This document shows positions 2,958 to 36,920 of a stretch of DNA of 64,000 bases, in pieces. Under the pieces are notes generated by a model, which did no database searches, was not told the DNA's origin, and worked only from the letters and a program-made list of their open reading frames with translations. Each line of letters begins with the position of its first letter. The first letter of the stretch is position 1. The translations under genes were made by a program, and so were the position numbers. The DNA comes from Clostridia bacterium (GTDB taxonomy: Bacteria > Bacillota > Clostridia > Oscillospirales > CAG-272): assembly GCA_017472285.1 (NCBI GenBank), contig JAFUQQ010000058.1:6637-70636 (forward strand), written 5' to 3'.

Positions 2958-3002
2958 AAAGTTGTTGAAATTACAACAAGACAGGAACAGAAAGGAATTA
3001 TC

Positions 3003-3455
3003 ATGCAAGAACGTTTTCAGATGTTTACCGTATTGATTGCAAAACTGAACCGTTGTATACGAAAGATTAAAACACAGGAAATGGCGGAATTTGATCTGAA
3101 AAGTCCCCATGTTTCTTGCCTGTATTATCTCTATCAGACGGATTCCCTGACGGCAAAGGAGCTTTGCGCGATCTGCGAAGAAGATAAAGCCAATATTTCC
3201 CGTTCCATCGAATATCTGGAGGCGGGCGGCTATCTTATTTGTCATTCCAAGACGGAAAAACGCTATAAAAGTCCTCTTGTCCTGACGGAAAAGGGAAGAG
3301 AGGTCGGCGCAAAGATTAAAGAAAAGGTCGATCATCTGCTCGCAAGGGCAGGAGAGGGTCTTTCTGAAGAAAATCGCCGCATCATGTACCAAAGTCTTGA
3401 GATTGTTTGCGAGAATCTGCAAAGATTCTGCGACGAATATGAAGAAACCAAATAA
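3003..3455 (+). CDS. MarR family transcriptional regulator
   Basis: 150 aa with a winged-helix MarR-like pattern (LTAKELCAICEEDKANISRSIEYLEAGGYL). Start at MQERF follows GAAAGGA and lies downstream of the predicted promoter. Confidence 0.75.
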   Translation: MQERFQMFTVLIAKLNRCIRKIKTQEMAEFDLKSPHVSCLYYLYQTDSLTAKELCAICEEDKANISRSIEYLEAGGYLICHSKTEKRYKSPLVLTEKGREVGAKIKEKVDHLLARAGEGLSEENRRIMYQSLEIVCENLQRFCDEYEETK

Positions 3456-3480
3456 AATTATTTTATAAGGAGTGCTGTAT

Positions 3481-5553
3481 ATGCAAAAAACGGATCCCAA
3501 ATATCAGGCATTATTTACGCCCTGGAAGATTGGCAACGTGGAGATTAAAAACCGCATCGTCATGTGTCCGATGGGCGGTACGTCGCTTTTCGGCTGGTTT
3601 GAACTCGGCGGCTGTCATTTTGACAAGGAAGCGGCAAAGCTCTTCCTTGAAAGAGCGCAGAACAACGTCGGTCTTATCATCCCCGGTATCGCTCCCTTGC
3701 GCGATACTTTCTTCGGTAAATGGCTCTGGCAGAACCCCAAAATGTTTGAAGAACTCAAGGTCTTTATGGATGAAATTCATAAGACGGGCGCGAAGCTTTT
3801 CATTCAGCTCACTGCAGGTATGGGACGCTCATGGGCGATCACCGAGCTTGTCGCACCTTTGCACAAGAACAAATTTACCCGTGCGCTCATCAAACCCATT
3901 CTCGATACTTCTCACGAGTTGGCAAGCCCCAGTCCTCAGCCTTCCCGTTGGGCTCCCGATATCGAATGTCCCGAAATGACCGTCGAACAGATTCATGAAA
4001 TCATCGAAGCTTTTGCAAAGACCGCAAAACTCTGTAAAGATGCAGGCGTTGACGGCGTGGAAGTTCACGCGGTTCACGAAGGCTATCTGCTCGACCAGTT
4101 CTCGATCGAATTTTTCAATAAGCGTACCGATGATTACGGTGGCAGCTTTGAAAACCGTTACCGTTTCGCAGCGGAAGTCGTTCAGGCGATCAAAAAAGCC
4201 TGCGGCAATGATTATCCCGTATCTCTCCGTTATTCCGTTGAATCCAAGATGAAAGGCTTCCGCGAAGGCGCTGTTCCTGGCGAAGAATATACCGAAGTCG
4301 GCAGAGCAATGGTAGAATCTGAAAAAGCGGCAAAATATCTTCAGGATGCGGGCTACGATATGCTCAATGCCGATAACGGTACTTACGACTCATGGTACTG
4401 GGCGCATCCGCCGATGTATATGCCGCAGAACTGCAACCTTGAGGACGTTGCGCATATCAAAAAATTTGTGGATATCCCCGTCGTTTGCGCGGGTCGTATG
4501 GAACCCGACGTTGGTGCAAAAGCCATTGCCGAAGGCAGAATCGACGCGATGGGGGTTGCCCGTCAGTTCCTCACAGATCCCGAATGGGTTACCAAACTGA
4601 TCGAGGACCGTCTGGAAGATATCAAGCCCTGTATCTGCTGTCATAACGCTTGCTTCAATTTCTCCTCCTCTAAAGGTCATGCCAATACACAGGATCTCAC
4701 GGATACCATGCATCTCGCACGTTGCGCACTTACGCCCCAGACGATGCAATCCAAAAAATATCGTATCGAACCCGCCAAGAAGAAAAAGAATATCGCTGTC
4801 ATCGGCGGCGGTATCGGCGGTATGGAAGCTGCGATCGTTTGTGCAAAACGCGGTCATACCGTAACGCTCTATGAAAAATCCGATAAGCTCGGCGGCGTAT
4901 TCATCGCGGCTGCCGCTCCTTCCTTCAAGGAAAAAGATAAGATGCTCATCGCATGGTACGAAAGAGAAATCAAGAAATATCCCGCGATCACTGTAAAGAT
5001 GAATACAGAGGTCAAGGATGTCAAGGCTCTCGGTGCGGATGAAGTCATCGTTGCAACAGGTGCAAAAGCAAGAAAGATCCCCGTCAAAGGTGTCGAACGT
5101 AGTATTCAGGCTGTGGATTATCTCCTCGGTAAGAAACCCGTCGGTGAAAACGTCGTGATCGTCGGCGGCGGTCTGACAGGCTGTGAAATCGCATACGAAC
5201 TCTATCTCCAGGGCAAGAAACCTGTCATCGTGGAAATGATGGATGACCTCATCGTGACAAAAGGTGTTTGCCTCGCAAACACAAGCTATCTCCGCGATTT
5301 CTTTAAAGCCAATAAAGTGCCTGTATATCTCGAAACCGGTCTTACTGAAATTACCGAACACGGTGTTATCGTTAAAAATAAAGAAGATAAGATCTCGACG
5401 ATCGAAGCGGATTCCGTTATCCTCTCCGTTGGTTATACCCCCGCTCCCGTTGTCGAAAAAGCAAAGAACGTACATATCATCGGCGACGCAAAGGCTGTCG
5501 GCAATCTCCGTACAGTTGTCTGGAACGCATGGGACGTTGCGATGAAGATATAA
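3481..5553 (+). CDS. NADH:flavin oxidoreductase, 2-enoate reductase / 2,4-dienoyl-CoA reductase family (OYE-like TIM barrel + FAD/NAD(P) domain)
   Basis: N-terminal OYE-type barrel (NRIVMCPMGG, HAVHEGYLLDQF). Cys cluster CICCHNAC. C-terminal Rossmann motifs GGGIGGMEAA and VVIVGGGLTGCE. AAGGAG 8 nt before the ATG at 3481. Confidence 0.8.
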   Translation: MQKTDPKYQALFTPWKIGNVEIKNRIVMCPMGGTSLFGWFELGGCHFDKEAAKLFLERAQNNVGLIIPGIAPLRDTFFGKWLWQNPKMFEELKVFMDEIHKTGAKLFIQLTAGMGRSWAITELVAPLHKNKFTRALIKPILDTSHELASPSPQPSRWAPDIECPEMTVEQIHEIIEAFAKTAKLCKDAGVDGVEVHAVHEGYLLDQFSIEFFNKRTDDYGGSFENRYRFAAEVVQAIKKACGNDYPVSLRYSVESKMKGFREGAVPGEEYTEVGRAMVESEKAAKYLQDAGYDMLNADNGTYDSWYWAHPPMYMPQNCNLEDVAHIKKFVDIPVVCAGRMEPDVGAKAIAEGRIDAMGVARQFLTDPEWVTKLIEDRLEDIKPCICCHNACFNFSSSKGHANTQDLTDTMHLARCALTPQTMQSKKYRIEPAKKKKNIAVIGGGIGGMEAAIVCAKRGHTVTLYEKSDKLGGVFIAAAAPSFKEKDKMLIAWYEREIKKYPAITVKMNTEVKDVKALGADEVIVATGAKARKIPVKGVERSIQAVDYLLGKKPVGENVVIVGGGLTGCEIAYELYLQGKKPVIVEMMDDLIVTKGVCLANTSYLRDFFKANKVPVYLETGLTEITEHGVIVKNKEDKISTIEADSVILSVGYTPAPVVEKAKNVHIIGDAKAVGNLRTVVWNAWDVAMKI

Positions 5554-24286: not shown

Positions 24287-24721
24287 TTAACCTTTCGTCA
24301 AAAGCAAGAGAGTCTGTTCATCTTCTTTACCGCCGTAATATTTTTCCAGAACTTTGTGAAAAACCGGATGTGCATTTTCTGTCTTGCTGAAAAGTGTCAT
24401 ACAAGATTGGACCTTGGTCGTGTCAGGGCTGCCAAAAATCAAATAAGGATTGTTATTCGGAAGCGCGAGCAGGGCTTCAGAAATTTCGATCAGTCTCGCC
24501 CCGAGAATCTCGTGGCGCATATACGCGTTAGCTTCTTCCATACTGCCGATTCCATAAAAATAAGAACGCGAGGATGCTCCCAACCCTCTGAGTTGAGGGA
24601 AAATATACCATATCCAATGACCCCTCTTGTGTCCGTTGCGTACTTCCGCAAGTGCTTGTTGATAAGTGGCGCAAGGAATACTTTCGTTCTGCGCCTTTAA
24701 AAAACGTTGCAATTGATGCAT
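24287..24721 (-). CDS. DUF1810 family protein
   Basis: LQRFLKAQ...Y..AL.E...G.K..HWIWYIFPQLRGLG is the characteristic DUF1810 N-terminal signature. Confidence 0.75.
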   Translation of the reverse strand: MHQLQRFLKAQNESIPCATYQQALAEVRNGHKRGHWIWYIFPQLRGLGASSRSYFYGIGSMEEANAYMRHEILGARLIEISEALLALPNNNPYLIFGSPDTTKVQSCMTLFSKTENAHPVFHKVLEKYYGGKEDEQTLLLLTKG

Positions 24722-24738
24722 GATGCACTCCTTTTCAA

Positions 24739-24818
24739 TAAAGCTTTTTGAAGAATTTTCAAGGGGACTTTTTCTCGAAAAAGTCCCCTTGAAACGTGGT
24801 TGGGAGCGGCAGCTCCAA
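24739..24818. repeat. intergenic palindromic repeat, copy 3
   Basis: CAAGGGGACTTTTTCTCGAAAAAGTCCCCTTG hairpin (24760-24791) plus a second GGGAGC/GCTCC hairpin. Same design as the other copies and located 3' of citrate synthase. Confidence 0.55.
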
Positions 24819-24824
24819 TTATTT

Positions 24825-26192
24825 TTAAAAATGATAACGGTCTTTCAAGGAAACGTAAGTCTTGTCTTCCTTGACGTTGATATAAGCGGGACGGATAATC
24901 TTGCCCGCGTTCTGAATTTCTTCGATTCGGTGTGCACTCCAGCCGGAGATACGCGCAGTTGCAAAGATCGGCGTATAAAGCTCAAGCGGAAGATCGAGCA
25001 TCTTATAGATCAAGCCGGAATAGAAGTCGACGTTCGGGCTGACCGTGCGGTACATATTGCGTTTAGACATGATGATCTCAGGCGCAAGACGGGCAACCGT
25101 TTCATAGAATTCGTATTCTTCCTGAAAACCTTTTTCTTCGGAAAGGTCCTTTGCGCAGCTCATGAGAATATCGGCTCTCGGGTCAGAAATAGAGTAGACC
25201 GCATGGCCAAGACCGTAGATCAGACCAGCATGGTCGAAAGCTTCTTTATTCAGCAGTTTCACAAGATAATCTTTGATCTGTCCTTCATCTTTGGTATTGA
25301 TATTCTGCTTCATGTCCTCAAACATCTGAACAACTTTGATGTTTGCGCCGCCGTGACGGGGACCTTTGAGAGAACCGAGTGCCGCCGCGATGGTCGCATA
25401 GGTATCCGTACCCGAAGACGTTACGACGTGTGTCGTAAAGGTGGAGTTGTTACCGCCGCCGTGTTCCGCGTGGAGAACGAGCGCAAGGTCGAGGATCTTC
25501 GCTTCCAATTTGGTGAACTGTCCGTCTTCGCGGAGAAGCTGGAGAAGATTTTCCGCCGTGGAAAGCTCGGGTTTAGGCAAATGGATGAAAAGGCTCTTAT
25601 CTTTATGATAATGCTGGAAGGACTGATAGCTGTATACGGAGAGCATGGGGAAGACTGCGATGAGCTGCAAGCACTGACGAAGGACGTTTGCAACGGAGGT
25701 GTCGTCGGGATTTTCGTCGTACGCATAGAGCGCAAGTACGCTTCGGGAAAGAATATTCATCATATCTTTGCCGGGGGCTTTGAGGATCATATCACGCACG
25801 AAGGAAGTCGGCAGACTGCGGTATTCCGCAAGTGTCTGACGGAAACGTTCGAGCTGATGCATATCGGGCAGTTCGGAAAAGAGAAGCAGATAAGTTGCTT
25901 CCTCAAAGCCGAAGCGGTCATCATGCAGAAAGCCTTTGACAAGATCGCGCACGTTGATACCTCTGTAAGCGAGGATGCCGTCGATGGGGGTTACGTTACC
26001 GTTTTCATCGACGATTTTGGACTGTACGTTGGAGATTTCAGTCAGTCCCGTTACAACGCCGTTACCTTTCACGTCGCGCAAGCCGCGGAATACGTGATGG
26101 CGGTCATACATTTCGGTACGGATGCCGTTATTACGGATCGATTTTTCCGCCATTTCGTGGATGTAGGGGGTGATATCGGAAAAAGTTGTCAT
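24825..26192 (-). CDS. citrate synthase
   Basis: 455 aa. HAEHGGGNNSTF, GPRHGGAN and GLGHAVY motifs. AAGGAG upstream of MTTFSD. Confidence 0.9.
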   Translation of the reverse strand: MTTFSDITPYIHEMAEKSIRNNGIRTEMYDRHHVFRGLRDVKGNGVVTGLTEISNVQSKIVDENGNVTPIDGILAYRGINVRDLVKGFLHDDRFGFEEATYLLLFSELPDMHQLERFRQTLAEYRSLPTSFVRDMILKAPGKDMMNILSRSVLALYAYDENPDDTSVANVLRQCLQLIAVFPMLSVYSYQSFQHYHKDKSLFIHLPKPELSTAENLLQLLREDGQFTKLEAKILDLALVLHAEHGGGNNSTFTTHVVTSSGTDTYATIAAALGSLKGPRHGGANIKVVQMFEDMKQNINTKDEGQIKDYLVKLLNKEAFDHAGLIYGLGHAVYSISDPRADILMSCAKDLSEEKGFQEEYEFYETVARLAPEIIMSKRNMYRTVSPNVDFYSGLIYKMLDLPLELYTPIFATARISGWSAHRIEEIQNAGKIIRPAYINVKEDKTYVSLKDRYHF

Positions 26193-26242
26193 TATATATT
26201 CTCCTTTTTTATAAGGGGGGATTTCATTAAAAGAATGAAAAC

Positions 26243-26272
26243 AGTATAGCACAGTTTTCCTTGATTTGTCAA
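26243..26272 (-). promoter_or_regulatory. promoter TTGACA-18-TGcTATACT for citrate synthase
   Basis: Read on the minus strand. Confidence 0.5.
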
Positions 26273-27020: not shown

Positions 27021-27250
27021 TCTTCGGTTATAACCGATATAAATTTCCATTTGCTGTTATTGTTGGTTGGCAAGATTTTGTGCATGATTACAACGAATTT
27101 GGGCATAATATCCAAAAGACTTTTAAGGTATTGCATCATTTCTACTGATTTGTGCATGAAAAAAGGTTGACTTTTGTCGGAAAATATATTATCATAAATT
27201 TGATGAATGTTTTTTAAAAAACATAGAAAAAACTATGGAGGACCAACAAA

Positions 27251-28873
27251 ATGGCTATTTCCACATCAATTTCGATGCTCAGAAGCAAAGCCAAACTTTC
27301 CGAAAAGGAATTTGGCGCGCTTCTTGACGTTTCGGAAGAAACCGTTATGAATTGGGAAAACGGCACACAGACACCCGATGTTGCACAGACTGTCCGCATC
27401 GCAAAAGAATTTCATATTTCTGCGGACAAGCTCATGGAAACGGGTATGAAAAAAGAAACCGTGATGCCCAAGGGTAATGAGATCAAGCCCAATTACGCAA
27501 AGCTTCCCGAATGGGAACTTTATTCCAAATCGCTCCGTTATGAATATATGCAGAGCGTGGAAGAAGGTCTTGATATTGAACAGTACAAACGACTTTTTGA
27601 TGCGATCGACGCGCTCCCGCCCAATGAATTCAAGGAGCAGATGGCTGACGTTCTTTTTGATATCGTTTCCCATGCGGATACCGTTGAGGGTTATCCCTAT
27701 AACGAACCTTCCGACCTTAAAGGGATTCAGGCACTCTGCGGCGAATATGATTTCCCGAAAAAAGAGCTGACCGAAGAAGCACTCAACGATAAGATCAAAG
27801 GCGCTTGGTACGGCAGAATCTGCGGTTGTTTGCTCGGCAAACCCGTGGAAGGTATTTCCTGCGAGGAATTGACTTCGCTTCTCAAGGAAACGGGCAACTA
27901 TCCCATGACGAGATATATTCTCGAAAGCGATCTGACGGAAGATATGTATGACAAATACAAATTCCCGCTCGAAGGCAAATGCTATGCGGATACGATCGAA
28001 TGGGCACCCGTGGATGACGATACGAACTATGTTGCGCTCGCGCAAGTTCTGATCCGTAAATACGGATTGGATTTCAAACCTAAGCACGTTGCTGATCTTT
28101 GGATGGCGCGTCAGGGCAAGAATGCGTACTGCACGGCGGAAAGAATCGCTTTCTGCAATTTCATCAAGGGCATCATGCCTCCTTATTCCGCGATGCATAA
28201 GAACAGCTACCGCGAATGGATCGGCGCACAGATCAGAGGCGACTATTTCGGTTATATCAATCCCGGTAATCCGAAAAAAGCGGCAGATATGGCTTGGCGT
28301 GACGCTTGTATCTCTCATGTCAAGAACGGTATCTACGGCGAGATGTTCGCGGCGGCAATGATCGCTTGCGCGGCAGTGACAGACGATATCGAAGATATCA
28401 TCAAGGGCGGTCTTGCGGAAATCCCAACGACTTCCCGACTTTATGCGAAGATCATGAGCGTGCTCGAAGATTATCATAATGGCGTGGGCTTCTATGAAGC
28501 GATCGAAAAGATCAAAGAAGAATACGATCCTTCCAATTCTCACGGCTGGACACATACCATTTCCAATGCGGCGATCGTCGTTCTGGCACTCTTGCACGGC
28601 GAAGGCGATTACGGCAAATCCATCTGCCGCGCGGTCGAAGTCGGTTACGATACGGACTGCAACGGTGCGACCGTTGGTTCGATCATTGGTATCCGCAACG
28701 GTTTCGCTGCCATCGATGAAGTCTGGACAAAACCCGTGAACAGTAAATTGGAAACGAGCATCTTCGGTGTCGGTATTCTCGATCTCGATAAAGCGGCGGC
28801 AAGAACCATGAAGCATATCAAGGGCGAAACCGAGGACGAAGAAGACAAAAAGAAAAAGAGAAAAAAATCTTAA
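27251..28873 (+). CDS. XRE-type HTH domain fused to an ADP-ribosylglycohydrolase (ARH) domain
   Basis: N-terminus LSEKEFGALLDVSEETVMNWENGTQTPD (HTH). C-terminal roughly 350 aa carry the ARH signatures KGAWYGRICGCLLGKPVEG, DDDTNY and GYDTDCNGATVGSIIG. Lys-rich tail. Confidence 0.85.
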   Translation: MAISTSISMLRSKAKLSEKEFGALLDVSEETVMNWENGTQTPDVAQTVRIAKEFHISADKLMETGMKKETVMPKGNEIKPNYAKLPEWELYSKSLRYEYMQSVEEGLDIEQYKRLFDAIDALPPNEFKEQMADVLFDIVSHADTVEGYPYNEPSDLKGIQALCGEYDFPKKELTEEALNDKIKGAWYGRICGCLLGKPVEGISCEELTSLLKETGNYPMTRYILESDLTEDMYDKYKFPLEGKCYADTIEWAPVDDDTNYVALAQVLIRKYGLDFKPKHVADLWMARQGKNAYCTAERIAFCNFIKGIMPPYSAMHKNSYREWIGAQIRGDYFGYINPGNPKKAADMAWRDACISHVKNGIYGEMFAAAMIACAAVTDDIEDIIKGGLAEIPTTSRLYAKIMSVLEDYHNGVGFYEAIEKIKEEYDPSNSHGWTHTISNAAIVVLALLHGEGDYGKSICRAVEVGYDTDCNGATVGSIIGIRNGFAAIDEVWTKPVNSKLETSIFGVGILDLDKAAARTMKHIKGETEDEEDKKKKRKKS

Positions 28874-28905
28874 ACGGTTTTTGTCTTTGGATTGGAGGAA
28901 ATAAC

Positions 28906-30477
28906 ATGGCATTTTCCGATAAAATATATAAATTCAGAAAAACGCGGGGACTTTCCGAAGAAGCTTTCGGTGAACTTTTTGCCGTTTCCGCAGATGACGT
29001 TCGCGCATGGGAAGCGGGCTGTTATCCCGAAAGAGAAAAGATCATGGAGATCGCTTCTTATTTCGGCTTGACCTGTGATGAACTTCTCATTCAGAATGAT
29101 TACGCGGATTATGATCTTCCGATCGGTGAAGATATTCTTCCCGATTTTGAAAGCATCAATCCGTATGAAGCATATACCAAATCTTTGATGTATGAATATA
29201 TGCAGAGCATCCGTGAAGGACGTGATGCTGCGCTCTATAATAAAGTTTTGTTGGCATTCCGCAGATTGCCTGAAAGCATCTATAAAACAAGACTTGGCGA
29301 TATTCTTTTTGAAGCACTTCAGAATTGCAGAATGCGCGATGATTTCAAATTCATTGAGCCTTCCGATCTTGAGAACATCAAGAATCTTCGCAAACCGTAC
29401 ACCTTTGAAAGAAAGGAACTGACAAAAGACGTTCTTCGCGATAAAGTCAAAGGTGCTTGGCTCGGCAGAATCAGCGGCTGTCTGCTCGGCAAACCGATCG
29501 AAGGTATCGGTTTTGAAGAAATCGAATCCCTTCTGAAAGAAACGAATAACTATCCGATGGAACGCTATATCAAAGCAAGTGAGATCACGGAAGAAATGTA
29601 CGGACGTTATAAATACAATCTCCGCGGCAGATGCTTTGCGGATACTGTCGAATATGCGCCTTGGGATGACGATACGAACTACGTCGTGATCGCACAGTGC
29701 CTGCTCGATAAATACGGCAGAGATTTCACACCTGATGATATGGCGAAGATCTGGCTCAGCGTACAGGGCAAAGACGCTTATTGCACAGCGGAAAGAGTTG
29801 CTTTCCGTAACTTTGTTAACGGTTATAAGCCCCCGTATTCTGCGATCTATAAGAATCCTTACCGTGAAATGATCGGCGCACAGATCAGAGGCGACTATTT
29901 CGGTTATATCAATCCCGGTGATCCCGAAAAAGCGGCAGAAATGGCATTCCGTGATGCTTGTATCTCCCATACGAAGAACGGTATCTATGGTGAAATGTTC
30001 GCGGCGGCTATGATCGCTTGCGCGGCTGTTACGGATAATATCGAAGATATCATCCGCGGAGGTCTTGCGGAAATTCCCGAAACGTCCCGTCTTTACGATA
30101 AGATCACTCGTGTTATCGATGATTACAAGAACGGCGTGACGAGAGAAGAAGCGTATGCGCGCGTCAAAGAAGAATATCAGATCAAGGATACGGATAGCTG
30201 GTTACATACGATTCCCAACGCGGCTATCGTTGCCATCGCTCTCCTTTATGGCGAGGGTGATTTCGGCAAATCCATCTGCGCTTCCGTTGAAGTTGGTTAT
30301 GACACAGACTGCAACGGCGCGACCGTTGGCTCTGTTATGGGTATGCGCAATGGTACTGCGGGCATCGGTGAAGAATGGACGGCTCCCATTAACGGCAAAC
30401 TGGAAACGACCATTTTCGGTGTCGGTATTCTCGATATTGACGAGGCGGCTGAAAAGACGATGTCCCACATGGCATAA
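28906..30477 (+). CDS. XRE-type HTH / ADP-ribosylglycohydrolase fusion, paralogue of the preceding gene
   Basis: Same architecture. Collinear and highly similar by eye, including a 48-nt identical DNA stretch (28220-28267 = 29872-29919). GGAGG SD. Confidence 0.85.
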   Translation: MAFSDKIYKFRKTRGLSEEAFGELFAVSADDVRAWEAGCYPEREKIMEIASYFGLTCDELLIQNDYADYDLPIGEDILPDFESINPYEAYTKSLMYEYMQSIREGRDAALYNKVLLAFRRLPESIYKTRLGDILFEALQNCRMRDDFKFIEPSDLENIKNLRKPYTFERKELTKDVLRDKVKGAWLGRISGCLLGKPIEGIGFEEIESLLKETNNYPMERYIKASEITEEMYGRYKYNLRGRCFADTVEYAPWDDDTNYVVIAQCLLDKYGRDFTPDDMAKIWLSVQGKDAYCTAERVAFRNFVNGYKPPYSAIYKNPYREMIGAQIRGDYFGYINPGDPEKAAEMAFRDACISHTKNGIYGEMFAAAMIACAAVTDNIEDIIRGGLAEIPETSRLYDKITRVIDDYKNGVTREEAYARVKEEYQIKDTDSWLHTIPNAAIVAIALLYGEGDFGKSICASVEVGYDTDCNGATVGSVMGMRNGTAGIGEEWTAPINGKLETTIFGVGILDIDEAAEKTMSHMA

Positions 30478-30493: not shown

Positions 30494-30552
30494 CCCCAAA
30501 CCCCCGCAAGTGCTGTTTTTGAAAAAACACCCTTGATCCCCAAAAACTTTTA
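30494..30552. repeat. intergenic palindromic repeat, copy 4 (inverted, diverged)
   Basis: Contains CCCCAAACCCCC and AAAAACTTTTA modules (the reverse complements of GGGGTTTGGGG and AAAAGTTTTT). Confidence 0.45.
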
Positions 30553-30602
30553 TAATGAACGCTCGGAGATTTTCTTCGGGCGTTTTTGTTTATAAGGTGA
30601 AT

Positions 30603-30636
30603 AAAAATCTCCCATCCGATCGGATGGGAGATTTTG
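30603..30636. terminator. bidirectional rho-independent terminator
   Basis: AAAATCTCCCATCCGATCGGATGGGAGATTTT, a perfect palindrome between convergent operons. Confidence 0.85.
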
Positions 30637-30656
30637 TGTTGTGAGGATCAGCTCAC

Positions 30657-32232: not shown

Positions 32233-33039
32233 TCAAATTTTTGAGGATTCGTCTTCGATGAGCATATAATTTTTCAGTTCGGGCAGGAGAAATTCCTCTT
32301 TGTGTGTAAGGATATAATTTTGAGCATCCATACTTCCGTGGTTTTTTGCCGCATCCAAAAGGAGCTGTTCACCTGTCATGCGGTCGATCTCAGAGCCTCC
32401 TTCATCGTTGCTTTCAAAGGAAAGCCCCGCGAAACGTGCTTGTGCCAGAAGATATTTGGCATCTCCGATGAAACGTCCTGCATATGCTTCATCCTGTGCG
32501 GCAGCAAGTGTCAGCATTCGCATGGCATCGCTTTCTGATTGTATGATCGTTGTAATGCGTTCATCATCGCCCTCTAAAAACGCATAACCATCCAATAACG
32601 GAAATGGCGGATCATAAAGTGGTTTATGATAGGGCAGTGTTGTTACGGCAAAAACGGATGGTGTTTGCAAATATCCCGAAAGATAAACGCCTGCCAGATA
32701 AAGCTGTGCTTCGATACAGCCCATTTCCGCGCTTTTTTCCATATATTCCAATGCACGCGGATAGCTTTGTGCGGTTCCGAGTCCGAAAAAATAAAAGATA
32801 GCGAGATTGTAGGCGGCTTCTCCAAAATCACCGTCCATGCCATAGAGATAATATTCATGGGCTTTTTCATAGCTTTGCCGAATACCGAATCCAAATTCGT
32901 ACATATATGCCACAAATGATGCGGAACGGGCATCCGCATATGTATCGGCACCCATCAGAAAATGGCAGAAAGCTGCCGTGTATTTACCGTCCAGAAAGAG
33001 AACCGTACCTTCGCTGCGGTCGTATGTTTGATTTTCCAT
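32233..33039 (-). CDS. Sel1-like (SLR/TPR) repeat protein
   Basis: Repeated A..Y..G.G...S...A..Y..KSAE.G...A units (for example AAYNLAIFYFFGLGTAQSYPRALEYMEKSAEMGCIEAQ). Confidence 0.65.
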   Translation of the reverse strand: MENQTYDRSEGTVLFLDGKYTAAFCHFLMGADTYADARSASFVAYMYEFGFGIRQSYEKAHEYYLYGMDGDFGEAAYNLAIFYFFGLGTAQSYPRALEYMEKSAEMGCIEAQLYLAGVYLSGYLQTPSVFAVTTLPYHKPLYDPPFPLLDGYAFLEGDDERITTIIQSESDAMRMLTLAAAQDEAYAGRFIGDAKYLLAQARFAGLSFESNDEGGSEIDRMTGEQLLLDAAKNHGSMDAQNYILTHKEEFLLPELKNYMLIEDESSKI

Positions 33040-33105
33040 AGTCTTACCTCTTTTCATTCATATTGGGATTATTATGGTACTATAAAAATCACGAAAATAC
33101 AAGTC

Positions 33106-33208
33106 TTGATTTTTTGGGGATTTTGTGGTATAATATATATAGAAAAAGCGGATGCTCTCCGCTTCGGACTATTGAAAAAGCACCCGTGTCAAGCGGGTGC
33201 TTTTATCT
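33106..33208 (+). ncRNA. candidate small RNA (promoter TTGATT-17-TGgTATAAT, roughly 68-nt transcript, two hairpins, U-tract)
   Basis: Strong promoter at 33106-33134 with no ORF behind it. Hairpin AGCGGA/TCCGCT, then AAAGCACCCG/CGGGTGCTTT + TTAT. The 3' end is antisense to the stop region of the XRE gene. Confidence 0.35.
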
Positions 33209-33409
33209 ATTGATGTTGGGATTATTTGTTCGTTCCAAGAGATAGTCAATGGAAACATCAAAATAATCTGCAAGTGCGATCAAAGTGGCGTAATCAGCTT
33301 CTCGTTCGCCGGTTTCATATCGGCTGATTGTATTTTGGTTCATATTTAAATCCATCGCAAGCTTTACTTGTGAAATTTTTCGGCTTTTCCGTAATTCTTT
33401 TAAACGCAT
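33203..33409 (-). CDS. XRE family HTH transcriptional regulator
   Basis: 68 aa. LKELRKSRKISQVKLAMDLNMNQNTISRYETGER. Confidence 0.85.
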   Translation of the reverse strand: MRLKELRKSRKISQVKLAMDLNMNQNTISRYETGEREADYATLIALADYFDVSIDYLLERTNNPNINR

Positions 33410-33434
33410 TTTTCACCTAAAAATAAAAAAACTC

Positions 33435-33463
33435 TTGACTTTATTATACCATTGTGGTATAAT
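33435..33463 (+). promoter_or_regulatory. promoter TTGACT-17-TATAAT overlapped by palindrome ATACCATTGTGGTAT (33446-33460)
   Basis: A 6-3-6 palindrome lies across the spacer/-10, in the divergent region next to the XRE gene. Confidence 0.5.
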
Positions 33464-33501
33464 CAAAATATCCCATTTTGGTATATTGAAAGGAGATTTT
33501 T

Positions 33502-34554
33502 ATGCCAAACTATTCGAGTGTTTCCCCTTTTGACAAAGCTGTATCGAATTTTTCCGAAAACTATAACGACGAAGCTTTGATTCAAAAATATCATTCCTAT
33601 CCTCTCAAAAGTTTAATTTTGAATTTGATTACCCTATCGTTTTTTATTGCATGGCTTGTGATTGCCAATATTTATGAAAATCCGAGTTATTTGCAATTCT
33701 TGCTTCCGCCGGTCTTGGGGTGCTTGAGCATCGTTCTTACGCAAAAGATATGTCCGCCTTATTATAAAAAGGCGATTGCACAGGTGATGATGCAAAAATA
33801 CAAGAAAGCCCCAGATAGCGTTAAAAATCCGTATTATTATTTTTACAGAAGAGAAAAAGAAGTTCTTGGCTCGGTGAAAAAAAGACCTGCGGAGCTCGTT
33901 ATCAAAATCGTTGGTATCGTTGTAAAAATTCTGAATATCATTTGCAACGTTTTCTGTGCGGTTGCATTGTCTGCGGTTTGCCTGATGCTTGCAGGAATTA
34001 TCAGCGTTTTCTTGGGTGCTGCGTATATTGTTTTTTTAGCAGGACGTGCGAATGGTTTGGCAGAATTGATGCTGCGTGCGGTAAAAGCATCTTGGATTCC
34101 CGTCAAGTGGAGCTTTTCATTTTTGTTCCGAGTGTTGTCCTTGAAGGATTTTCTTGGTATGGGAGAAACTACATATAGCGATGCTGATTTTTCATCCTCA
34201 AATTCTCAAAAAGGTTTTATCAATGATGCTTTCACAACCGATCCGAAAAAAATGGGGCAAAGCCTTTCAGAATTACGGCTCGATTCTTACCTGAGTCTTT
34301 CTGGTTTGATTTTGCCGAACGGCATTTCATGGAAGGGCACGCCTTCCGTTTCTTCGAGTGGCGCAACCGTATATGTTGATGGTGATTTGAAAGCAGAACC
34401 GTTTTTTAAAACAAAAGCTGACATTCAGCAAGCGGTTGATCAAAGCGTTCAGGCGGTCGCGGATCATTTAAAACCGCAGGTTGCTCGGTATTTCGCGGAT
34501 TATCCCAATGCACCTAAAGTTACTTATAATATTGAATTAACCTATACCGTTTAA
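33502..34554 (+). CDS. hypothetical multi-pass membrane protein
   Basis: 350 aa with at least four hydrophobic segments. AAAGGAG SD. No recognisable domain. Confidence 0.6.
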   Translation: MPNYSSVSPFDKAVSNFSENYNDEALIQKYHSYPLKSLILNLITLSFFIAWLVIANIYENPSYLQFLLPPVLGCLSIVLTQKICPPYYKKAIAQVMMQKYKKAPDSVKNPYYYFYRREKEVLGSVKKRPAELVIKIVGIVVKILNIICNVFCAVALSAVCLMLAGIISVFLGAAYIVFLAGRANGLAELMLRAVKASWIPVKWSFSFLFRVLSLKDFLGMGETTYSDADFSSSNSQKGFINDAFTTDPKKMGQSLSELRLDSYLSLSGLILPNGISWKGTPSVSSSGATVYVDGDLKAEPFFKTKADIQQAVDQSVQAVADHLKPQVARYFADYPNAPKVTYNIELTYTV

Positions 34555-35409: not shown

Positions 35410-36705
35410 TCAATACATTTCAACGTACTGGTCGCGTTCTGCGCCGACGGAAACGTATTTGATGCGGCATTCGGTGAGTTTTTCGAGGTATTCAACGTAA
35501 CGGATCGCTGCTTCGGGAAGATCTTCTTTTGTGCGGCAGTGAGAAATATCGCAATTCCAACCATCAACGTATTCGATCACGGGTTTTGCTTCAGCGAGCT
35601 TCACGCGGTCTGTCGTAAAGGTTGTAGTCTGTTTGCCATCGATCTCATAAGCAACGCAAACGGGGATCTTTTCCATATAGCTGAGGATATCCATCTTTGT
35701 GATCGCAATTTCGGTTGCGCCCTGAACGCGGATACCGTACTTGGAAGCAACAACGTCAAACGGACCGACTCTGCGGGGTCTGCCTGTTGCCGCGCCGTAT
35801 TCGCCACCTGCTTCACGGAGCTTCTTTGCATTTTCTTCATCGGGGGTACCGTCTTTCCATTCAGCAGTGAAAGGACCTTCGCCAACGCAAGTGGAGTAAG
35901 CCTTCATGATACCGAGAACGTAGTCAAGACGGCAGCCGGGAACACCCGCGCCGATGGGAGCGTATGCGGCAATTGTGGGAGAAGAAGAAGTGTAAGGATA
36001 GATACCGAAATCGATATCGCGGAGTGCGCCGAGCTGCGCTTCAAACATGATGCTCTTGCCATTCGCATTTGCTTCGTAGAGATATTCGCAAACGTCGCAA
36101 ACGTAAGGTTTGAGCTGGTCGCCGTAAGTACGGAGCCACTTCATGGTTTCGTCGATATCGCTGGGTTCAGCTTTGTAAACGCCTTCGATGGTGAGGTTCT
36201 TGAAGGAAACGAGGTCTTTGACCTGACCGTAGAGAACTTCATCGGATGCGAAAAGATCGCACATACGGAGTGCTTTTTTCATGTATTTGTCGCCATATAC
36301 GGGAGAGATACCGCGTCCTGTGGAGCCATATTTTTTATCGCCAAGGCGCGCTTCTTCCAGACGGTCAAGGCGAACGTGGTAAGGCATACAGATGACAGCC
36401 TTATCGCTGATCTTGAGGTTTTCGGGTGTAATTACGATACCGCCGGCAGTGAGGTTTGCGATTTCGCCGCAGAGGTGCTGCATATCGATAACCATACCGT
36501 TACCCATGACGTTAACGACTTCGGGGCGGAGAATACCGGAGGGAAGCAGATTGAGGATAAACTTTCCTCTTTCATTGATAACGGTGTGTCCCGCATTGTT
36601 GCCACCCTGATAGCGGCAAACGATGTCGCTCTTTTCGGCGAGCAAGTCGACCATACGGCCTTTTCCTTCATCGCCCCAGTTGATTCCGACAACAGATGTA
36701 AGCAT
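35410..36705 (-). CDS. purA: adenylosuccinate synthase
   Basis: GINWGDEGKGRMVD P-loop, GGNNAGHT and TGRGISPVY motifs. Start set at MLTSVVG with GGAGA upstream. Confidence 0.93.
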   Translation of the reverse strand: MLTSVVGINWGDEGKGRMVDLLAEKSDIVCRYQGGNNAGHTVINERGKFILNLLPSGILRPEVVNVMGNGMVIDMQHLCGEIANLTAGGIVITPENLKISDKAVICMPYHVRLDRLEEARLGDKKYGSTGRGISPVYGDKYMKKALRMCDLFASDEVLYGQVKDLVSFKNLTIEGVYKAEPSDIDETMKWLRTYGDQLKPYVCDVCEYLYEANANGKSIMFEAQLGALRDIDFGIYPYTSSSPTIAAYAPIGAGVPGCRLDYVLGIMKAYSTCVGEGPFTAEWKDGTPDEENAKKLREAGGEYGAATGRPRRVGPFDVVASKYGIRVQGATEIAITKMDILSYMEKIPVCVAYEIDGKQTTTFTTDRVKLAEAKPVIEYVDGWNCDISHCRTKEDLPEAAIRYVEYLEKLTECRIKYVSVGAERDQYVEMY

Positions 36706-36920
36706 AATAATTCTATCTCCAATCGACTTTGTGATTTTGTTCCCGTTCATACGAGTACATTTTATTATAACATTAAATTGACTTCAATGCAATAGGTCTT
36801 TCGTTTTTTTCCTCGAAAATTTAAAAAAAGTTAAAATTCACATTTGTTTCATTGACTTATGAAGGAAGTTATGATAAATTATAAAGATAGTGATTATGAT
36901 AAAAAGGGAGGTGAGAGGAG

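Follow-up and report, generated by a model that had tools for sequence, protein, structure and literature searches.

The stretch of DNA analysed here (the window) comprises 64,000 nt of contig JAFUQQ010000058.1 from a Clostridia bacterium and carries two adjacent genes on the + strand, A (27251-28873) and B (28906-30477), each of which fuses an XRE-type helix-turn-helix (HTH) to a complete ADP-ribosylglycohydrolase (ARH) domain of an extended kind, referred to here as long ARH. Our best explanation for these genes, which taken as a whole stands about an even chance of being right, puts the enzyme first. A and B would be old tandem paralogues in a large uncharacterized Clostridia family whose primary function would lie in the enzyme part, a binuclear-metal glycohydrolase with a family-specific helical extension. 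Its substrate would be a small ribosyl-containing metabolite (ADP-ribose, nucleoside diphosphate-sugar or ribonucleoside type), and the ribose-type product would be passed to ribokinase-like kinases. In the main clade of the family the HTH would bind two CAAC-N5-GTTG palindromes that lie 22-23 bp apart and abut the gene's own -35 box, and feedback would then set the enzyme level, presumably tuned by how far substrate or product occupies the ARH domain. In the window lineage the HTH fold appears to have been kept, with its DNA-reading residues replaced before the A/B duplication and the palindrome gone. A and B would act mainly as enzymes, possibly as a heteromer, and their HTH would be either re-specified to another target or decaying.

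We put the enzyme first because unfused orthologues are equally conserved, the catalytic set is invariant and the module has been captured repeatedly by different DNA-binding domains, and also because the gene's own promoter is the sole detected target and the same HTH and operator are found on an unrelated enzyme, GlmM. The main known role of ARH-fold proteins is to remove ADP-ribose from proteins, and this gut-Clostridia branch looks like a small-molecule ribosyl hydrolase. The conserved operator is new, and together with its correlation with the recognition helix and the HTH-GlmM parallel it offers the most promising leads. ARH-fold hydrolases and enzyme-regulator fusions are of known kinds. 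Taken alone the window is less striking: its genes are derived, duplicated members of a common family that probably act as enzymes only.

Domain architecture and distribution

A first-pass annotation of the window, made from the letters alone, had described two tandem HTH-ARH genes of 540 (A) and 523 (B) amino acids, and the open reading frames (ORFs), the Pfam matches and the alignment of A with B (collinear, end to end, 58% identity over 523 aa) agree with it. In A, residues 1-63 (27251-27439) form a Cro/C1 (XRE) HTH with recognition helix VSEETVMNWENG. It matches HTH_3 (PF01381) at 24.7 bits against a gathering cutoff of 23, and the family profile over residues 1-65 matches the classical Cro/C1 repressors P22 C2, ImmR, CylR2 and PezA. 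The HTH of B, with recognition helix VSADDVRAWEAG, has no Pfam match at E ≤0.01 and is recognized only by a sub-threshold NCBIfam RstR-like match (2e-7) and the family alignment. The ARH-fold catalytic core, residues 181-525 of A (27791-28825), matches ADP_ribosyl_GH (PF03747) at E values of 3e-50 in A and 5e-49 in B (172 and 168 bits against a cutoff of 26.2), with model positions 1-286 of 287 covered.

The two domains had been thought to be joined by a linker of about 110 aa. Only some 20 residues of it (64-85; 27440-27505) are a true flexible linker, disordered (predicted local distance difference test, pLDDT, below 50 at residues 64-82) and poorly conserved in the family alignment. Most of the remainder, residues 86-180 (27506-27790), is a conserved helical N-terminal extension that is integral to the long-ARH family (pLDDT 87-97; ratio of nonsynonymous to synonymous substitution rates, dN/dS, ~0.1). 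This division follows from the unfused homologues: an exhaustive search with A residues 71-540 returned 3,526 relatives, and most of the best 150 representatives at 50% identity are about 450 aa long, lack an HTH and align from about A residue 88. Both A and B align end to end with unfused long-ARH members at 30-50% identity, and both contain the family motifs YCTAER, REWIGAQIRGDYFGYINPG and SHxKNGIYGEM.

An AlphaFold2 model of A was built from 45 homologues (pLDDT 88.5; predicted TM-score, pTM, 0.83) and has the all-helical ARH fold. The top 50 PDB matches of the model in Foldseek are all ARH-fold proteins (E ~1e-6 to 1e-4), with MJ1187, ARH3, DraG, Tri1 and Lmo0067 matching the core best at an identity of only 12-18%. 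A single-sequence search of the PDB with the protein gave no ARH match, and profile searches and the Escherichia coli protein YegU were needed. The long ARH shares with DraG, ARH3, ARH1, Tri1 and MJ1187 the fold (probability 1.0 in Foldseek, with TM-scores of 0.6-0.76 to the target) and the Glu and Asp-rich binuclear-metal motifs. It differs from the solved ARHs in adding an N-terminal helical extension of ~95 aa and an insertion of ~35-50 aa between Glu and DD, and in having DDD for the classical [ST]DD and Cys for Thr/Ser in DxD[TS].

The fusion is common. Any rarity implied at first pass is not borne out, as the domain-architecture check gave thousands of clusters: more than 7,800 protein clusters at 90% identity, with nearly all of the top 120 carrying HTH_3 and ARH, and at least 592 loci in species-representative genomes. 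Every listed locus is from a metagenome-assembled genome of uncultured gut or rumen Clostridia (Oscillospiraceae, Acutalibacteraceae, Lachnospiraceae, Ruminococcaceae). The fused proteins are named in databases only as 'ADP-ribosylglycohydrolase family protein' or 'helix-turn-helix domain-containing protein', and in the searchable literature on HTH, XRE, LacI or GntR with ADP-ribosylglycohydrolase we found no characterization of the fusion. The exact sequence of protein A gave no record among public assemblies.

The long-ARH module is also found in other settings. For comparison, 82 non-redundant loci (±10 kb per genome; numbered with L) were assembled, and all of their ORFs were called and clustered. 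The module is unfused in 30 of these 82 genome loci, at 55-59% identity (53% in one) to the ARH module of A, which is similar to or above that of the fused main clade. Elsewhere it follows a GntR domain (P0201), a solitary LacI HTH, where the module takes the place of the usual sugar-binding domain (P0256), or a complete LacI/PurR regulator (P0227). As judged from these sequences, it is a module that DNA-binding domains have recruited repeatedly (XRE, GntR, LacI HTH and full LacI/PurR). It is also found in front of a PfkB kinase (P0212) and in front of an IU-nucleoside hydrolase resembling RihC/RihA (P0264). The PfkB partners score best as ribokinase, at 230-264 bits, which does not reach the equivalog cutoff. 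Only fragments came from a homology search for other C-terminal partners that used the short HTH alone.

An intact and invariant active site

The active site was mapped using profile-to-PDB alignments together with hhalign and BLASTP alignments with E. coli YegU. The signatures KGAW.GRI.GCLLGKP.EG, DDDTNY and GYDTDCNGAT, which had been read by eye in both genes, are indeed present in A and B and align to motifs of DraG, MJ1187, Tri1 and YegU. The segment GAWYGRICGCLLGKPVEG aligns to G..G.A.GDA.G...E, which identifies E200 with the catalytic Glu of these four proteins; DDDTNY aligns to the classical [ST]DDT motif and GYDTDCNGAT to the classical GGD[AT]D[TS] motif. In gene A these residues are encoded at 27848-27850 (E200), 28013-28021 (D255-D257) and 28649-28660 (D467-T468-D469-C470), and in B the catalytic residues are intact at an offset of -1.

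Across 173 fused and 54 unfused sequences (n=227), E200, D255-257, D467, D469, R189, R329, R396, N359 and N439 are invariant, and the loss of acidic residues that would mark a ligand-binding relic is not seen. At position 470, a Thr or Ser site in classical ARHs, the residue is Cys (Ser in 10 of the 54 unfused sequences). In comparisons with orthologues, the approximate dN/dS of the ARH domain is 0.06-0.15 for A and 0.04-0.10 for B. By these alignments, the metal-site and catalytic residues are intact in A and B and under selection.

An operator palindrome in the main clade

A palindrome, (A/G)CAAC-N5-GTTG(C/T), is present upstream of fused genes from many families. Exact CAAC-N5-GTTG occurs in the 200 nt upstream of 18 of 53 fused genes against ~0.26 expected, and matches of at least 7/8 are found for 35 of the 53 against ~3.6 expected, an enrichment that is somewhat inflated by the manner in which the site was found (see below). 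Among 28 unfused genes there is no exact site, and the six with matches of at least 7/8 (~3.2 expected) do not amount to an enrichment. In fused genes the exact sites fall between -82 and -124 relative to the start codon, and only 34 exact sites exist across all 1.40 Mb of loci. An initial operator model, CAACC-N4-GGTTG, was wrongly spaced and was found in 3 of 53; it was replaced by CAAC-N5-GTTG.

Alignment of 32 promoters on the site gave ACAACC..CgGTTGc.aaAAtaaCAA.t.....TTt.TTG, followed by 17 nt and tG.TATAAT. The -10 box starts exactly at +59 from the palindrome in 23 of the 32, and a weaker second palindrome lies 22-23 bp downstream of the first, abutting the -35 box. The palindrome tracks a near-invariant recognition helix, VS[RQ]Q[SA]VQKWE, to which 129 main-clade sequences conform. 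On this basis most fused relatives appear to control their own promoter. Operator and helix together provide a testable circuit for an anonymous annotation that covers thousands of database entries.

The site recurs in two other positions. In L051, where a ribokinase-like gene comes immediately before the HTH-ARH gene, an exact copy is found ~85 nt upstream of the former. In L047, exact copies precede a gene for an XRE HTH (helix VSRQSVSKWE) fused to a genuine GlmM, whose GlmM part scores 502 bits with TIGR01455 against a cutoff of 447. This HTH-GlmM gene occupies 2972-4591 (- strand) of its locus, with palindromes at ~4716 and ~4798, and is followed by a hexapeptide transferase gene and a NagB-like gene. 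HTH-GlmM proteins are abundant (119 of the 120 top homologues carry HTH_3 and PGM domains) and constitute a second common HTH-enzyme fusion in Clostridia; with the same operator, they hint at a general strategy of enzyme self-regulation in a major gut-bacterial group.

Away from the genes' own promoters the site is not in excess. More than 260 nt from the start of an ARH ORF, 14 exact sites were counted in the 1.4 Mb of flanks against ~20 by chance, and one of these (L053 at 9914) is an own-promoter site inside an over-extended ORF. This count bears on the view of these proteins as pure one-component transcription factors, in which the ARH domain would only sense a ligand (ADP-ribose or related), catalysis would be irrelevant or lost, and the regulon would be wider, as for NrtR. 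We consider this unlikely. The ARH domain does take the usual effector place behind XRE, GntR and LacI HTHs, and the operator is conserved. However, fused and unfused members alike keep every catalytic and metal residue unchanged, whereas sensor relics such as NrtR-type regulators usually lose theirs. The full LacI/PurR regulator that is fused to the module already owns an effector domain, operator sites show no excess outside own promoters, and the window clade is without the operator.

The first-pass annotation had also raised the idea of a DNA-targeted de-ADP-ribosylase, in which the HTH would tether the hydrolase to DNA and counter DarT-like or pierisin-like toxins. A DNA-binding domain fused to an apparently active ARH is what this idea would predict, but we now judge it very unlikely. 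The HTH seems tied to one palindrome at its own promoter, unlike a general DNA binder; the module is mostly unfused, is equally conserved when unfused, is joined to ribokinase-like and nucleoside-hydrolase partners as well, and has been taken up by four kinds of DNA-binding domain. The window clade has lost the DNA-reading residues and yet its ARH is under strong selection, and there is neither a toxin neighbour nor a PADLOC match beyond the HTH.

A changed helix and a missing palindrome in the window lineage

The recognition helix reads VSEETVMNWE in A and VSADDVRAWE in B, and neither fits the main-clade pattern. All 44 sequences of the A/B clade (A and B of the window, those of L001, L005 and L006, and P0001-P0036) deviate from it, their helices following [VIT][SCD][EA][EADK][TDEA][VLI]xxWE. 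In A, the family's conserved R/Q-Q..Q-K DNA-reading residues are absent, with acidic or variable residues in their place. Since the acidic pattern is common to both paralogues, the change in the helix predates the A/B duplication. At matched ARH divergence (~70% identity), the identity of the recognition helix is 0.80 in the main clade and 0.49 in the A/B clade; the corresponding values for the N-terminal extension are 0.49 and 0.46.

The palindrome is missing as well. No CAAC-N5-GTTG site at 7/8 or better was found upstream of A or B of the window, of the A gene of L001, of the B gene of L005 or of the L006 gene, and there is no exact copy anywhere in the 64-kb window. The B gene of L001 and the A gene of L005 each have one 7/8 match at -157, which is outside the -82 to -124 range and consistent with chance. 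The earlier proposal of a transcription factor linked to a ribosyl compound as its ligand or substrate is supported at the level of the family, most of whose fused members have palindromic operators at their own promoters; the window lineage has lost both the operator and the DNA-reading residues.

The HTH itself is still under purifying selection. Its approximate dN/dS is 0.17-0.31 in gene A and 0.13-0.39 across the A/B clade, which is two to four times the ARH value and still below 1. As read from these comparisons, the window-clade HTH is folded and retained, it is either re-specified or losing its DNA reading, and the lineage no longer has the ancestral autoregulatory circuit. The window therefore offers a natural loss-of-operator clade for comparison with the main clade.

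Old duplication and short-tract gene conversion

Genes of type A and type B fall into two distinct sets of orthologues, with 74-84% identity within each type and 56-59% between A and B, and the duplication is therefore old. The tandem pair is kept in L001, L005, L084 and L086/87 while the flanking genes change. An identical stretch of 48 nt had been taken as a sign of recent duplication or gene conversion. The identity is real and extends over 49 nt, from 28219 to 28267 in A, where it encodes the invariant motif IGAQIRGDYFGYINPG, and from 29871 to 29919 in B (both + strand). A run of 16 identical codons has a P of ~2e-4 in a codon-usage-matched simulation. The synonymous codons of the tract co-vary between A and B within a genome and differ between genomes (window, L001 and L005), the identical A-B tract measuring 55 nt with different codons in L005 and 33 nt in L001. 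Because of this pattern of codons, the identity of the tract is, in sequence terms, the signature of short-tract gene conversion. Of the two events suggested earlier, only the short conversion tract is recent.

A broader proposal, which we put forward tentatively and with more doubt than confidence, is that gut Clostridia possess a portable cassette, consisting of one type of XRE HTH with a VSxQxVxKWE helix and its CAAC-N5-GTTG double operator, that has been placed at the N-terminus of at least two whole metabolic enzymes, the long ARH and GlmM, which is essential for the cell wall. Each such enzyme would sense its substrate or product and tune its own transcription, with possible cross-regulation. 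The window pair would have escaped from this arrangement by losing DNA reading and operator, duplicating and becoming heteromeric, with gene conversion at an active-site motif keeping the paralogues in step.

Substrate class and gene neighbourhood

The fusion and operon partners of the module, PfkB and nucleoside hydrolase, point to a small ribosyl or nucleotide-sugar substrate, although they are present in a minority of loci. A ribokinase-like gene lies within 5 kb in 6 loci, and in 5 of these it is immediately downstream, usually overlapping, with a median gap of 5 nt. Other minority neighbours are AraC, GH43 and GFO/IDH/MocA genes. A DUF2961 gene was also observed near the fused gene in 5 of 52 fused loci (for example L034:8735-9835, - strand), and in 4 of them it is upstream and divergent with a median gap of ~180 nt.

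The same partners tell against a protein de-ADP-ribosylase of the DraG/ARH1/ARH3 type that would reverse endogenous or toxin-mediated ADP-ribosylation, with the HTH serving autoregulation. We regard this as quite improbable, even though the fold and the intact binuclear site would suit it and the best structural matches include ARH3, DraG, Tri1 and Lmo0067. Identity to those enzymes is only 12-18%, and with the DraG equivalog model TIGR02662 the score is 15 bits, where the cutoff is 337. The 82 loci showed no ADP-ribosyltransferase and no other conserved partner, and the ribokinase-like and nucleoside-hydrolase fusions and operons point to small molecules.

An antitoxin or immunity component of an ADP-ribosyltransferase (ART)-ARH toxin-antitoxin or defence system, another setting that had been considered, is less credible still, to the point of being extremely improbable. 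XRE-type antitoxins commonly autoregulate, there is weak HTH-level likeness to MqsA, HipB-like, spr1629, RmrA and capH models, and ART-ARH pairs exist in the PDB (6dre, 8za7). However, no ADP-ribosyltransferase or toxin gene adjoins in any of the 82 loci, the window neighbours included. The matches from PADLOC 2.0 are weak and confined to the HTH (RmrA, HTH_VI, capH), with none to the ARH part. The chromosomal context is one of housekeeping genes (citrate synthase, GNAT, oxaloacetate decarboxylase), and the family is near-universal across several Clostridia families. The toxin-antitoxin and defence readings, like that of DNA de-ADP-ribosylation, are not supported.

Several points weigh against our explanation of a self-regulating small-molecule enzyme. 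The search for shared neighbours in the 82 loci found no widely conserved partner, in most loci the gene stands alone, and the ribokinase association holds in only ~7% of loci. ARH-fold enzymes classically act on ADP-ribosylated proteins, and these may do so too; the substrate and the hydrolase activity of the HTH-long-ARH proteins are predictions for a family known from its sequences. As for regulation, the sites would be centred near -65 and -43, which fits activation (class-II-type) as well as repression. The palindrome was first spotted by eye in sequences that were also used for the counts, and near-duplicate loci (L012/L015, L031/L035) are among them, which is why the enrichment is somewhat inflated; the fixed -10 register, the absence from unfused genes and the two recurrences (L051, L047) are independent of that choice. 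Coverage was ±10 kb per genome, so further operator targets could lie elsewhere in the genomes. In the window clade, the HTH is under purifying selection rather than a dead domain and may bind a different DNA site, and close relatives of the window show unusual conservation of the promoter spacer. The dN/dS values are approximate in that dS is near saturation.

Comparison with known systems

Complete enzymes that carry their own DNA-binding domain and repress their own operon according to substrate or product state are experimentally established in PutA and BirA. Their folds and DNA-binding domains are different, and for the long ARH both DNA binding and ligand control are predictions. NadR combines an XRE-type HTH with NMN adenylyltransferase and ribosylnicotinamide kinase, acts as a bifunctional enzyme and regulator, and controls a multi-gene NAD regulon. 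The likeness lies in an N-terminal Cro/C1-type HTH fused to enzymes that work in pyridine-nucleotide or ribosyl metabolism. The enzymes have unrelated folds, however, and the detected target of the long-ARH fusions is limited to their own promoter or operon, with no such target seen for the window pair.

NrtR, a Nudix-related transcriptional regulator that senses ADP-ribose (PMC9503650), is similar in being a one-component regulator with an ADP-ribose-processing type of domain fused to a DNA-binding domain. It differs in its Nudix fold, its C-terminal winged HTH and its commonly degenerate catalytic residues, whereas the ARH set is invariant here. In E. coli, the GgaR (YegW)-yegTUV system comprises a single-target repressor of the GntR type, for which ADP-glucose is the reported effector, together with the ARH-family protein YegU and YegV, a sugar kinase of the PfkB type (PMC10819704). 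The same parts are met here as fusions or operons (GntR-ARH, ARH-PfkB, operator-pfkB-HTH-ARH), while in E. coli the GntR regulator is a protein of its own. With 334 aa, YegU belongs to the short classical ARHs; it lacks the N-terminal extension (21% identity, hhalign probability 91%) and itself has no assigned activity. In the ribose-utilization systems (Rus) of Bacteroidetes, ARH genes lie beside ribokinases, nucleoside hydrolases and LacI-type regulators and have been proposed to free ribose from ribosyl nutrients (bioRxiv 10.1101/574913). Those are multi-gene loci resembling polysaccharide-utilization loci, with SusC/D transporters, whereas the Clostridia genes are usually solitary, cytoplasmic and regulator-fused.

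Operon signals and other features of the window

A sigma-70-type promoter for the A-B operon, TTGACT-17 nt-TATCAT (27167-27195, + strand), was predicted from a consensus scan (10/12 matches), and in the alignment with the two closest relatives, L001 and L086, the promoter block including the -35/-10 spacer is nearly invariant. The leader carries an inverted repeat, CATAG-N6-CTATG (27221-27237), next to the ribosome-binding site (RBS) GGAGGA of gene A, the two together spanning 27221-27243 (+ strand). The repeat is kept in the window, L086 and L001 and could be a small translational or structural element; an Rfam scan of the operon and leader found no family matching the leader. The repeats between 27077 and 27224 had been put forward as binding sites for these proteins, and they are not conserved even in the closest relatives. 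For the direct repeat TTTGTGCATGA at 27077 and 27149, L086 keeps only the second copy (27149) and L001 neither, and the palindrome at 27207-27224 is absent from both; each was rejected as an operator.

The 32-nt A-B spacer (28874-28905, + strand) contains an RBS, GGAGGA (28894-28899), and a terminator scan found no terminator-like site in it, so A and B are likely co-transcribed from one promoter, as far as these sequence signals indicate. Downstream of B, a terminator region spans 30557-30632 (+ strand), in which one hairpin, at 30557-30585, has a T-run and another strong hairpin occupies ~30607-30632. An Rfam His_leader match at 30524-30639 (+ strand), which overlies these hairpins, reaches 26 bits (E 0.31), below the gathering score of 49, and is most likely due to chance. 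The end of gene A (28826-28870) encodes an acidic and then lysine-rich tail (GETEDEEDKKKKRKKS), which is similar in the A-type gene of L001 and not in that of L005.

Around the pair, the window holds DUF1810, citrate synthase, GNAT, A-B and the gamma and beta subunits of oxaloacetate decarboxylase, in an order syntenic with L001 and L086. The linkage of the GNAT gene to A was dropped as a candidate, as it is seen only in close relatives (window, L001, L006, L086) and is absent from L084. The DUF1810 gene (24287-24721, - strand, in the window; L001:7279-7719; L084:4089-4529) lies within ~3 kb upstream of A-B even where the intervening genes differ, which may reflect leftover synteny or a weak link in function. 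Downstream, between the oxaloacetate decarboxylase beta gene and the SDR and adenylosuccinate synthetase genes, a block at 32233-34554 contains a Sel1-repeat protein, a 68-aa XRE HTH (33203-33409, - strand) and a 350-aa protein without a Pfam match. This block is absent from the syntenic L001, its GC content drops to 0.39, and it may be a small insertion.

Very long antisense ORFs of up to 548 aa overlie real genes throughout the window (27266-28912, -; 24720-26249, +; 808-2202, +; 35539-36795, +). The 548-aa one was preferred over gene A by longest-ORF calling and was rejected for lack of homology support; such ORFs look like compositional artefacts. Finally, the stand-alone ARH noted at first pass at 238-1032 is real. 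It lies on the - strand and is a classical short ARH of 264 aa (Pfam 3e-37) with TDDT and GGDSDT motifs, related to A and B at the superfamily level only (its hhalign comparison with the long ARH is insignificant). It is located 12 nt downstream of a GH78-like (rhamnosidase six-hairpin) gene (1045-2856, - strand), which suggests an ARH-glycosidase operon unrelated to A and B.

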